A stretch of DNA of 45,637 bases, from IMG/VR virus record IMGVR_UViG_2529292910_000009, positions 1-45,637 of that record; one strand, 5' to 3'. Each line of letters opens with the position of its first letter. Within the stretch, counting starts at the first letter, position 1. The position numbers are program-made. Shown here in pieces: positions 39,001 to 42,000 of this stretch. Source of the DNA: a virus (taxonomy: Duplodnaviria > Heunggongvirae > Uroviricota > Caudoviricetes).

Positions 39001-42000
39001 GCGTCCGCTTGCAGAGATTAAAAACTTCGTTGAAAAAATGCCTGATGGAGTTCGCCTTACGGAAGTTACTAAAAAAGTTAAGACATTTGCCGAACTGTCA
39101 GGAAAGGAGAGAAACCAGCTCATAGATTTTATCGATAAACGGGAAAGCATCATTGTATTTAAGGTCAGAAAAGAAGGTTCTGGTAACGGAGTAACCTTTT
39201 TCCGCCACAAAAAATATGGATATCCCAAACGGGAAGGAAACGTCACAATCACTAAGGACCTTCAATCAAAATTATGTACCAGATGCGGGCAGACAAAATC
39301 AGTCAATGATTTTTATTCAGATGCCAGCAAGCGTGACGGGAGAGCCATTTATTGCAAGAAGTGCGAATCTGCAATGAAACGCTCACGCAGAGAATGCAAC
39401 AAATTAATTCTGCAACAACAGGAACCTGAAATGAATAACCTCAAAGCAGTTTCACCTTCACCAGAAATACTCAGAAAACAGGCTGAAGAATTGCTGAAAG
39501 CCGCCGAAATTGCGGAGAAAAAACGCCAGGAAGATGATGCATTCAACAAAAAACTTGCGCCCTTAAAACTTGAAATCCTTCAGGCCGCCGGAAAAATGCA
39601 GCTTAAACTGGACGAATTCATCGACTGTATGGATGAAATGAATAAAGCAGTTCAGAAGCTTAAAGAGCTGACCGCCTGATATTAATAAATTGCAACTACC
39701 GGAGTTAACTATGAACGAAACAGAACTGAAGCACATTATCGCCCTGCTTCTGGAAGATGCCAGACAGGTTTATCGACTTAGCCCAAATTCCGCAACGCTG
39801 ACACGCATCCAGATGGCAGAAAAAGCACTGAAACAGGATAATGAAAACAGCGCATCCGAAGTTGATGCTAATGGTGAAAATGAAGTAATAGAAATAAACA
39901 GCAATATCAGCGATAGTTGCGTCGCTTACAGCCACCAAATAATTCGTGTAAGTGCAAGAATAATGGAAGTGATGGCAAGTGAGCTTGAAAAGAACAACAT
40001 CAAGCCCACTGATTGTTGTTTAAGAACCGTAATGAACGTTATTTATTACTCGATGTTCCGAAGTCGCTAACAGCGTCGAGTTTTTCATCAAAAAATGATT
40101 CAAATGCATCGTAAAATACGGCAATAGCACCGCCCTTATCTACCGCGGCAGGAACTGCCTTTTGAGGTATATCTTTCTCCCTGAATTGTGTGTTGTAGGT
40201 ATCGACAGCCAGCCTCATCAGAAACATCACTTTTTCTTCTTGTGTCATAAATTCACTCTCCTTACGGGGTTTGTAGTTGAGGAGTTCTCCACGGGTGAGG
40301 TGGAGATCGTGCGCCGGACACGGGTGAGTTCCGGCACTCTCAGTTTACTGAACAGACATTACCCTGAAAGCCAGGGTACAACACGAAAGTGCACGGCGAA
40401 GACTCTTTCCCATTGAAGGCTTGTCGTTAGATTTCTTCGACCGTGCGCTTCCGGTTGTGAATAACAACATTGCTGTGTGTAGCCCTTGGCGGACATCGGT
40501 TTGCCGATTGCTGATGTCCGCCCTTTTTAAAGTGAATTTTGTGATGCGGTGAATGCGGCTATGCGCACGCGGAACAGTTAAACCGACAGGATGTCACGGA
40601 AAGTCATCGTCCCCTGACCCGGCGTTAGTTGTTAACTGGTTAACGTCACCTGGAGGCACCAGGCACCGCATCAACAAAGTTCATTTGTGAAAATGGAGAT
40701 AATTATGATTGCTCATCACTTCGGAACTGATGAAATACCACGTCAGTGCGTGACGCCTGGCGATTATGTTCTTCATGAAGGTCGGACATATATCGCTTCA
40801 GCAAACAATATTGAAAAGAGAAAACTCTATATTCGTAACTTCACAACAAAAACATGCATTACCGACTGCATGATTAAAGTTTTCATCGGGCGCGATGGCT
40901 TACCCGTAAAAGCAGCGTCGTTGTGACGAGTAATAAAATACACCTTCCATATCTGTAACAGACAAGCCGAAATAAAACCGCATTAATTATCAATCACGGA
41001 AAAATCAAAATGAAAGAACTTGCGCAAAATGAAATATTTTCCGAAACCAGTCCTGATGCAATAAATGAACTCAAAGAAATTGCAGAACGCATCAGTAAAA
41101 TATGCAAAGAATACAAAATCGACTTTGTATTTTCTTTTTCAGTGCTTACAGAAGTTGGAAATAACGAATATAAGGACAGTCGTTTTGTTTCATGTGGGTT
41201 AAATGGCAAAACACCAAGCCCATATATTCATGCTGCACGTGAAGTTGTCAGAAGCAACATTGGAGTACAACAAATCCATACACTGGCGCAGGATCTTGAG
41301 TTTGCAAGAGAAAATTCTGAGTGCGACTGCCCTGAATGCCAGCACGAAAAGGGAAAAACAACTCACAAAACAGCAAACCAGGCAACCTTCCACTGAAATA
41401 AAAATCCGGCAGCGCAGGCTACCGGATTTCTCCCTGCGTCACCGTATTCGGAGAAATCAGACAAAGGGCCGCTAATTCTAATCCAGCCAGAGGTTTAAAT
41501 ACAATGAGCGCTGATAAACAGACTTTTGCACTACACTGCGAAGCAAAAAACGATAAAGTCAGAAAACGCCTTGGCATCAAAGGCGGTTTTTTCTGGACCG
41601 AGGCCAGAAAACTTTCTGTCGCAGTTTCCCGCTGCATTGCAGCCATGGACGATGCAGGCTACGACGAGGATGATTTCAAAAAACCCGTTCGCGTAAATTT
41701 CCCCGTCGTGAATGACCTTCCACCGGAAGGCGTGTTTGATACTGAATTCTGCAACCGCTATGAAAAAGGCGGTAACGATGGCATCACCATGATGGCTATC
41801 CCCTTCGATGACAACATCAACGGTGAAGATGCCACAACTGCTGGCGATGACAACGATAACCTGGACGGAACTATTCCGGATGATGTGGAGAAAAGCGAAT
41901 CCCCGGACAGCGACGATGACTGTTCTGAGTGTGAAATTCCCGTCGCCACTCTGAGCCTTACTCATCGCTTCCTTCACCTCTTCTTCTTCAGCAAGGATGA

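Follow-up and report, generated by a model that had tools for sequence, protein, structure and literature searches.

A small conserved gene encoded against the early-left operon of a lambdoid prophage, in the slot of sieB and ahead of a KilS-type terminator

How can a gene that lies against the direction of a phage early operon be expressed, and does a small hairpin beside it serve antitermination? Both questions are raised by ORF69, an open reading frame (ORF) for a small protein of 69 amino acids (aa) on the minus strand (40039..40248) of the IMG/VR virus record IMGVR_UViG_2529292910_000009, a sequence of 45,637 nucleotides (nt) that was analyzed as a whole and is called the window here. The window is a lambdoid prophage, and the stretch is 99.3% identical to Escherichia phage PhiR5_2 and 97.2% identical to phiSTEC1589-Stx1c. 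The early-left (pL) operon runs on the plus strand in the order repressor, conversion cluster, terminator, nutL, N, orf238, orf119, ORF69 region, kil, recE, gam and a RecT-type annealing gene. Because ORF69 is encoded on the opposite strand, it cannot be made from pL. The initial annotation of the locus had proposed that ORF69 is expressed independently of pL, possibly in the lysogen, and that a nearby hairpin resembles the boxB of lambda and precedes a strong terminator. The explanation favored here, with a probability of roughly 0.55, is that ORF69 is a gene of the lysogen expressed from its own promoter in the slot of sieB, that the hairpin is a non-boxB element within a conserved block and that the terminator belongs to a KilS-type small RNA (sRNA). 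The ORF69 stretch is a compact three-part module of the pL operon in Rac/Qin-type lambdoid prophages.

The gene itself can be recognized by several independent features. The frame begins with ATG and is preceded by the Shine–Dalgarno (SD) sequence AAGGAGA (40263-40257, minus strand), with 9 nt from AGGAG to the ATG, in agreement with the initial annotation. It also converges, as described there, on an early gene of the plus strand, orf119 (39711-40070; PHROG 2982), and the two overlap at their 3′ ends by 32 nt (40039-40070). ORF69 belongs to PHROG 2605, with a profile match that spans residues 1-69 of the protein and positions 1-69 of the profile (E 1.5e-45). As an annotated hypothetical of a small PHROG it is already known, and the PGAP annotation of E. 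coli genomes lists it as a coding sequence for the ‘hypothetical protein’ WP_000189936.1. Homologues at 46-60% identity retain the frame, the length and a purine-rich SD, the sequence of which differs among them: AGGAGG in L012 and AAGAAGG or AAGAGA in L055 and the Edwardsiella phage EPP-1 (L numbers designate individual loci in the comparison). By Nei-Gojobori counts, the ratio of nonsynonymous to synonymous differences (pN/pS) is about 0.45 for the entire gene, with pS near saturation, and in codons 1-18 compared with the homologues pS is 0.39-0.97 and pN is 0.02-0.10. The N terminus MTxEEKVMFLMRLAV is invariant, and since pN is far below pS in these codons, it is kept as a peptide and not as DNA. 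ORF69 is a genuine conserved phage gene under strong protein-level purifying selection.

The product of ORF69 is small, acidic and soluble. An AlphaFold2 model of low confidence (predicted local distance difference test, pLDDT, 62.7) contains two helices (residues 3-22 and 40-65) with a disordered linker between them. The idea of a Rop-like protein, a helical hairpin with affinity for kissing RNA loops, failed in hhalign (probability 0.6%) and was rejected. When 1.84 billion representative proteins were searched with a profile, the family of the PHROG 2605 type proved small, with 16 clusters that are all small phage ORFs, and a literature search with the protein accession, the PHROG identifier and the N-terminal peptide found no papers. 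Among 5426 complete E. coli genomes, the window-type gene is present in 66, always as one copy and including O104:H4 outbreak strains, and a dicB-linked subtype is present in 8.

The position of ORF69 connects it to a characterized class of phage genes. Phage records, IMG/VR, species genomes and assemblies together yielded 54 ORF69 loci, and in every one of them (54/54) the homologue is antiparallel to the early-left operon. In E. coli-type loci it is located 460-570 nt upstream, in the sense of pL, of kil (19 distinct sequences) or dicB (8). In the Rac prophage of E. coli K-12, this slot of the pL operon before the kil region is occupied by sieB, in the same anti-pL orientation. The sieB gene of prophage Rac, P22 and lambda is an anti-pL superinfection exclusion gene with its own promoter, an antisense RNA (sas) and an escape protein (Esc) (PMC12197685). 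Like sieB, ORF69 is exposed to converging pL transcription. The leader upstream of distant ORF69 homologues (EPP-1, Buttiauxella and metagenomic phages) can be aligned as a homologue with the leader that precedes sieB in P22 and Rac, and the shared element reads GCCTGTCTTTT-ACCAC-N9-GTGGT, followed by a second hairpin. The likeness does not extend to the proteins, which have no similarity: ORF69 is a soluble, acidic protein of 69 aa, whereas SieB is a membrane protein of 192 aa. Loss of the gene is also seen in related loci. Qin has wholly lost ORF69, and in the Shigella phages 75/02 Stx (L002 3440-3560) and POCJ13 only the 3′ (C-terminal) half of the homologue is left; there, the N-terminal half is gone through deletion together with most of the leader, and the KilS-type terminator and kil are intact.

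On its other side, ORF69 has a conserved neighbor. A convergent overlap of 23-33 nt between the ORF69 homologue and an early gene is found in 8 of 9 diverse representative loci. The converging gene encodes a protein of 64-201 aa overall with a variable N-terminal part and a conserved C-terminal region of about 50 residues, in which the motif ..ISSxxLE..ELxxxxIKPTPxxLRxVMxII..SLP can be recognized. The partner family carries no informative names, and the AlphaFold2 model of orf119 is weak (pLDDT 59.8). The constancy of the 3′ overlap, together with the conserved C-terminal domain of the neighbor, points to a joint action of the two products, and conservation of the pair reaches from E. coli as far as Edwardsiella phages. 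The concept of an adjoining self-immunity partner is borrowed from sieB (PMC12197685), with the difference that the partner of ORF69 is a separate converging gene and that of sieB is made from an in-frame internal start. By analogy with SieB and Esc, the favored role of ORF69 would be that of a prophage-expressed exclusion or immunity factor paired with an early-expressed partner. In a more specific version, ORF69 and the C-terminal domain of the partner would form a two-component module of the sieB slot: the small protein of the lysogen would exclude or sense an incoming phage, the early partner would neutralize it or be neutralized by it to give the phage self-immunity, and expression of the two would be coupled via the antisense overlap. 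Read from gene order, this version is offered tentatively and is on the whole unlikely.

Genes for phage defense and conversion turn up repeatedly on the opposite strand of early operons, and for this reason ORF69 and its partner are a reasonable target. As an uncharacterized small protein found in about 1% of complete E. coli genomes and its converging partner, they are candidates for an accessory or exclusion function expressed in the lysogen.

Upstream of the start of ORF69 lies a non-coding block, 40249-40487, which is more conserved than the ORF69 protein. A candidate sigma-70 promoter is located at 40342..40370 on the minus strand, with CTTTCA as the -35 (40370-40365), a 17-nt spacer and TAAACT as the -10 (40347-40342). 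The -10 is invariant in the 17 aligned relatives that were used for conservation and covariation of the leader block. L007, L012 and Qin have TTTTCA as the -35. The PsieB promoter of P22, mapped and annotated with its start site in NC_002371, has an identical -10, GATAAACT, and an equally poor -35. Transcription from the weak candidate CTTTCA-17-TAAACT would start near 40335 and produce an mRNA whose structured leader, about 90 nt long, would include hairpins H2 and H1 and then a last hairpin that pairs with the SD. H2 (40313..40335) has the stem GCCGGA...TCCGGC, and H1 (40286..40306), invariant in the 17 relatives, reads TCTCCAC-GGGTGAG-GTGGAGA. In the last hairpin (40258..40284, minus strand), CUCCU is paired with AGGAG of the SD, an arrangement that may allow translational control of ORF69. 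The SD-pairing hairpin recurs in other loci with other sequences, UCUUGG/CCAAGA in L055, L056 and EPP-1 and CCUGG/CCAGG in L057. These comparisons are based on folds of each sequence, used because MAFFT could not put the distant leaders in structural register, and single folds of the SD hairpin are only modestly better than shuffles (z-scores -1 to -2). As for H1, H2 and the hairpin at 40360, none of the three varies among the 17 aligned sequences, which leaves no covariation signal to read.

Two further observations concern this leader. The direct repeat CACGGGTGAG is found at 40291-40300 and 40319-40328, where it makes up the loops of the adjacent invariant hairpins H1 and H2, and on the ORF-sense RNA both loops start with a YUNR-type CUCA. 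In the IMG/VR contigs L053 (1880-2500) and L054, the ORF69 leader, comprising the SD hairpin and the ACCAC...GTGGT hairpin, is duplicated; one copy precedes the ORF69 homologue and the other precedes an ORF for a 105-aa membrane-like protein, also anti-pL, which in L053 has no PHROG match. With this duplication, the leader acts like a portable expression cassette for anti-oriented genes.

Taken with the position of the gene, the leader makes it probable that ORF69 has expression of its own, the more general part of what the initial annotation had claimed. The support is indirect and consists of a real gene encoded against pL in the sieB slot of Rac, a sieB-like leader in distant members of the family and a conserved candidate promoter. 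Expression from this promoter in the lysogen is plausible. By analogy with sieB, sas and Esc (PMC12197685), the most economical reading is that the ORF69 protein would be made while pL is repressed and would be shut off by converging pL transcription after induction. Several points weigh against such a reading. A consensus scan found no strong promoter on the minus strand, where the candidate scores only 7/12 and falls below the threshold, and the whole block is so conserved that conserved promoter hexamers prove little. The mapped promoter of P22 is downstream of the shared hairpins, a layout unlike that of ORF69, and the leader of ORF69 in the window has no direct BLAST-level similarity to P22, the link being made via Rac and the distant homologues. 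Sequence and family searches with the protein returned no match in Pfam, NCBIfam, PADLOC or among PDB chains, and the BLASTP comparison with P22 SieB gave an E of 6.6, by which SieB homology of ORF69 is rejected. Finally, the evidence that pairs ORF69 with orf119 is synteny.

The best surviving alternative regards the conserved block primarily as an RNA element in the sense of pL, a leader and processing platform for the KilS or DicF sRNA and for kil or dicB. ORF69 would still be a real gene, but not one of the lysogen, with no more than transient expression, either in lytic growth or from a promoter at another site. This alternative draws on a long stem, H5 (40377..40459, plus strand), with a 5′ arm at about 40377-40399, a 3′ arm at about 40437-40459 and a hypervariable tip. 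At seven pair positions of H5 there are G-U variants, whose counterparts on the ORF-sense strand would be A.C mismatches, and a single position shows a compensatory change from G-C to A-U; H5 therefore works in the pL-sense RNA. However, H5 is outside the proposed ORF69 mRNA, and thus the stem is compatible with both readings, which do not conflict over it. Compared with shuffles, both strands of the block have much more stable folds: the value for the plus strand (z = -5.2) speaks for an RNA platform, but that for the minus strand (z = -7.05) is no weaker. The block is kept in Qin, which lost ORF69, and strong promoters are missing from the minus strand, two more points in favor of the platform. 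Conversely, the SD pairing recurs with covarying sequences, an anti-oriented gene inside the pL operon cannot come from pL and the sieB precedent has its own mapped promoter. With this evidence on both sides, a block that serves primarily as an RNA platform is a serious minority possibility, rather unlikely when set beside a lysogen-expressed ORF69.

The third part of the module is the terminator. The initial annotation had reported a strong terminator near 40488-40528, which can be confirmed and extended to 40488-40533 on the plus strand: GGCGGACATC...GATGTCCGCC is followed by CTTTTT, and the fold has a 13-bp stem with a free energy (dG) of -23.9 kcal/mol. It is the only strong intrinsic terminator of the plus strand seen between N and kil, and it ends 171 nt before the ATG of kil (40705-40926, plus strand; phrog_294), which encodes a KilR-type cell-division inhibitor. 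Above all, it is the 3′ end of a KilS-type sRNA. The K-12 gene kilS (b4833) is annotated as a non-coding RNA between sieB and kilR in the MG1655 RefSeq sequence NC_000913.3 (1418405-1418502). KilS was found in K-12 by Hfq RIL-seq and verified by northern blot, possibly has its own promoter and has yncL as a named target (Bar et al., 2021; PMC8175672). The window aligns with KilS over its length, including the terminator, at about 40439-40533 (plus strand), and identity to Rac is 86.5% over 40443-40560. A -10-like TAGATT (40428-40433, plus strand) sits where K-12 has a -10-like TAAATT, 7 nt before the mapped 5′ end of KilS. Both sRNAs are located about 170 nt before kil, in its 5′ untranslated region, and end in an intrinsic terminator; the copy in the window differs in the terminator loop and in a few seed bases. 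By homology, the terminator is the end of this known type of prophage sRNA; expression and Hfq association are known for the K-12 copy of KilS and are predicted for the copy in the window.

The sequence of the KilS-type sRNA has a further resemblance. The single-stranded stretch just 5′ of the terminator (40456-40487) carries ATTGCTGTGTGTAG, which is identical to nt 60-73 of RprA, and in Rac KilS (L062 745-780, minus strand) the identity to RprA extends to 16 nt, with flanks that are similar too. The local alignment of the KilS-type seed with RprA scores 36, compared with 26.3 +/- 2.3 (maximum 31) in shuffled windows. The paper on KilS does not mention RprA (PMC8175672). A prophage sRNA may in this case share part of the pairing or Hfq region of a core sRNA. 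Pairing of the KilS-like seed to the start regions of kil or ORF69 is no better than random.

In Qin, the same position is held by DicF. Window 40265-40487 is homologous to the spacer between ydfC and dicF in Qin, known as the ‘long untranslated region’ of the dicBF operon, and the KilS-type sRNA is the positional counterpart of DicF, with its terminator 171 nt before kil compared with 175 nt before dicB in Qin. The Qin transcript undergoes RNase III/E processing and partial termination (PMC5069750). In the window, the sRNA has its 5′ end at the 3′ arm of H5, which fits the published generation of DicF by termination and RNase III/E processing of read-through RNA (PMC5069750). H5 is a probable RNase III-type processing site ahead of the sRNA. 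The sRNA would arise by transcription from a promoter of its own or, alternatively, from pL read-through RNA that is processed at the stem 40377-40459. The two sRNAs are not the same element: their 5′ seeds differ, as does the fate of ORF69, lost in Qin. Membership in DicF was rejected for the element of the window, which scores 29.5 bits with Rfam DicF (RF00039) against a gathering score of 48; only Qin DicF passes among 8 related loci. Targeting of ftsZ was also rejected, since in duplexfold, a crude test, the element pairs with the ftsZ start region no better than expected by chance (z = +1.0 versus -1.85 for DicF).

The terminator probably also acts as an N-suppressible stop before kil, an intrinsic stop that pL transcription modified by N would have to pass to reach the inhibitor gene. 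N-dependent read-through of the terminator at 40488 is plausible on these grounds. In the distant loci of EPP-1 (L006 2930-3790) and L055, the terminator is followed by an ORF-poor stretch of about 850 nt with GGTTCGATTCC-like T-arm motifs, in which ARAGORN found no tRNA or tmRNA.

The comparison unites the KilS sRNA of Rac, the sieB slot and, from Qin, the sRNA DicF and its long untranslated region, three things that were described separately, as one conserved module before the cell-division inhibitors of prophages. What is new is modest. ORF69 can be placed in the sieB slot and given a conserved converging partner, KilS and DicF can be recognized as positional homologues behind a shared structured leader, and 14-16 nt of a KilS-type seed are identical to RprA.

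Two other explanations have been considered for parts of the module. One is that ORF69 is an antidote or regulator of the adjoining division inhibitor, Kil or DicB, and shields lysogens from its leaky expression. A kil or dicB gene is indeed always within 570 nt in 27 distinct E. coli-type contexts, but Kil and DicB are unrelated proteins, the homologues of Edwardsiella, Buttiauxella and metagenomic phages have neither gene within 1.4 kb, and the universally conserved partner is the converging gene, which lies on the opposite side of ORF69, all of which makes the idea improbable. The other assigns H1, H2 and the hairpin at 40360 an effect in cis on RNA polymerase, comparable to that of the HK022 put RNAs, which would allow protein-independent read-through of the KilS or DicF terminator in N-less prophages. 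Such a role is suggested by the two invariant stem-loops with the repeated loop CACGGGUGAG upstream of the terminator, present also in N-less Qin-type loci. Nevertheless, the window phage has N and nutL, the invariant stems give no covariation and the block has no similarity to the immunity-left region of HK022 that contains putL, so that a put-like antiterminator is speculation lacking sequence support and hardly a better candidate than an antidote.

The hairpin that the initial annotation had compared with boxB, ACCCTG-AAAGC-CAGGGT at 40361-40377, is present and extends to 7 bp as TACCCTG-AAAGC-CAGGGTA (40360..40378; dG -9.6 kcal/mol). The window contains 146 perfect hairpins of 6 bp and 63 of 7 bp, compared with 69 and 17 in shuffles. 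A bare hairpin of this size is unremarkable here; only conservation, which its sequence does show in related loci, gives it meaning. The phage has real boxBs elsewhere, both of the P22 type with the pentaloop GACAA: that of nutL is GCGCTGACAAAGCGC (38399-38413, plus strand, upstream of N), and that of nutR is TCGCTGACAAAGCGA (34886-34900, minus strand), the two elements being GCGCUGACAAAGCGC and UCGCUGACAAAGCGA. A scan for a 5-bp stem with a G..AA pentaloop found the sites at 38399 and 34886 and not 40361, and a search by boxB sequence with up to 3 mismatches had no match at 40361. The loop of the hairpin, AAAGC, has neither the G at position 1 nor the A at position 5 that mark a GNRA-like pentaloop. 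L007, L012 and Qin have one loop nucleotide more, giving 6 nt (AAAAGC, AAAAGU), and in Qin, L011 and L013 the stem is not intact. The hairpin does not co-vary with N: loci whose N is of the PF25694 type carry the same hairpin, as do Qin-type loci for which no N is recorded. No CGCTCTTTAACA-like boxA (at most 3 mismatches in 12) is found upstream of it on the plus strand, a weak test because the phage’s own nutL also has no consensus boxA.

A boxB-type element that loads N or an N-like factor for read-through of the terminator at 40488 is the weakest of the explanations and very improbable. In its favor, the hairpin is small, belongs to the pL-sense strand and precedes a terminator, as in the nut sites (boxA and boxB) of lambda and P22; here a strong terminator follows after 110 nt, and CCCUGAAA(A) matches the 5′ half of lambda boxB. 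Against it, the N of this phage is P22/H-19B-like (phrog_271) with GACAA boxBs of its own, the loop has the wrong sequence and length, the search at up to 3 mismatches saw no boxA-like sequence upstream and conservation is regardless of the N type. The hairpin is not a boxB or nut site; the boxB reading is essentially excluded, and a false lead is removed with it, as the phage has no extra nut site at this position. The hairpin is instead part of the conserved structured non-coding block of about 240 nt, where it overlaps the candidate -35 of ORF69.

Other features of the window lie around the module. The repressor gene (35245-35952; phrog_4) is followed, between it and pL, by a rexAB-like conversion cluster (36013-37922) that encodes a phrog_3467 protein, a RuvC-like protein (phrog_3875) and, as its last gene, the Ser/Thr kinase stk (37086-37922; phrog_2361). 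The terminator that closes this cluster after stk (38088-38109) is bidirectional in appearance. The N gene (38579-38962) is directly followed by orf238 (38963-39679; phrog_2539), in which a zinc-ribbon segment matches PHROGs of Lar-like restriction alleviation and of HNH/endonuclease VII (E about 1e-9).

The window also contains matches to known RNA families. A match to STnc100 (Rfam; 76.8 bits) is at 24871-25032 on the minus strand, directly downstream of the gene for the Q antiterminator (25371-25904; phrog_79), and by this position it is the leader of the late promoter. The leader of kil (40534-40704, plus strand), which is conserved, has a weak STnc100 match as well (40525-40719, plus strand; 31 bits). 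Both share the hairpin CCNGG-AGGCA-CCNGG, with a compensatory change. Further Rfam matches above the gathering score are the sok antitoxin of hok/sok (30102-30276, minus strand), isrK (28153-28230, minus strand), the C4 antisense RNA (28043-28127, minus strand) and sRNA-Xcc1 (287-375, plus strand).

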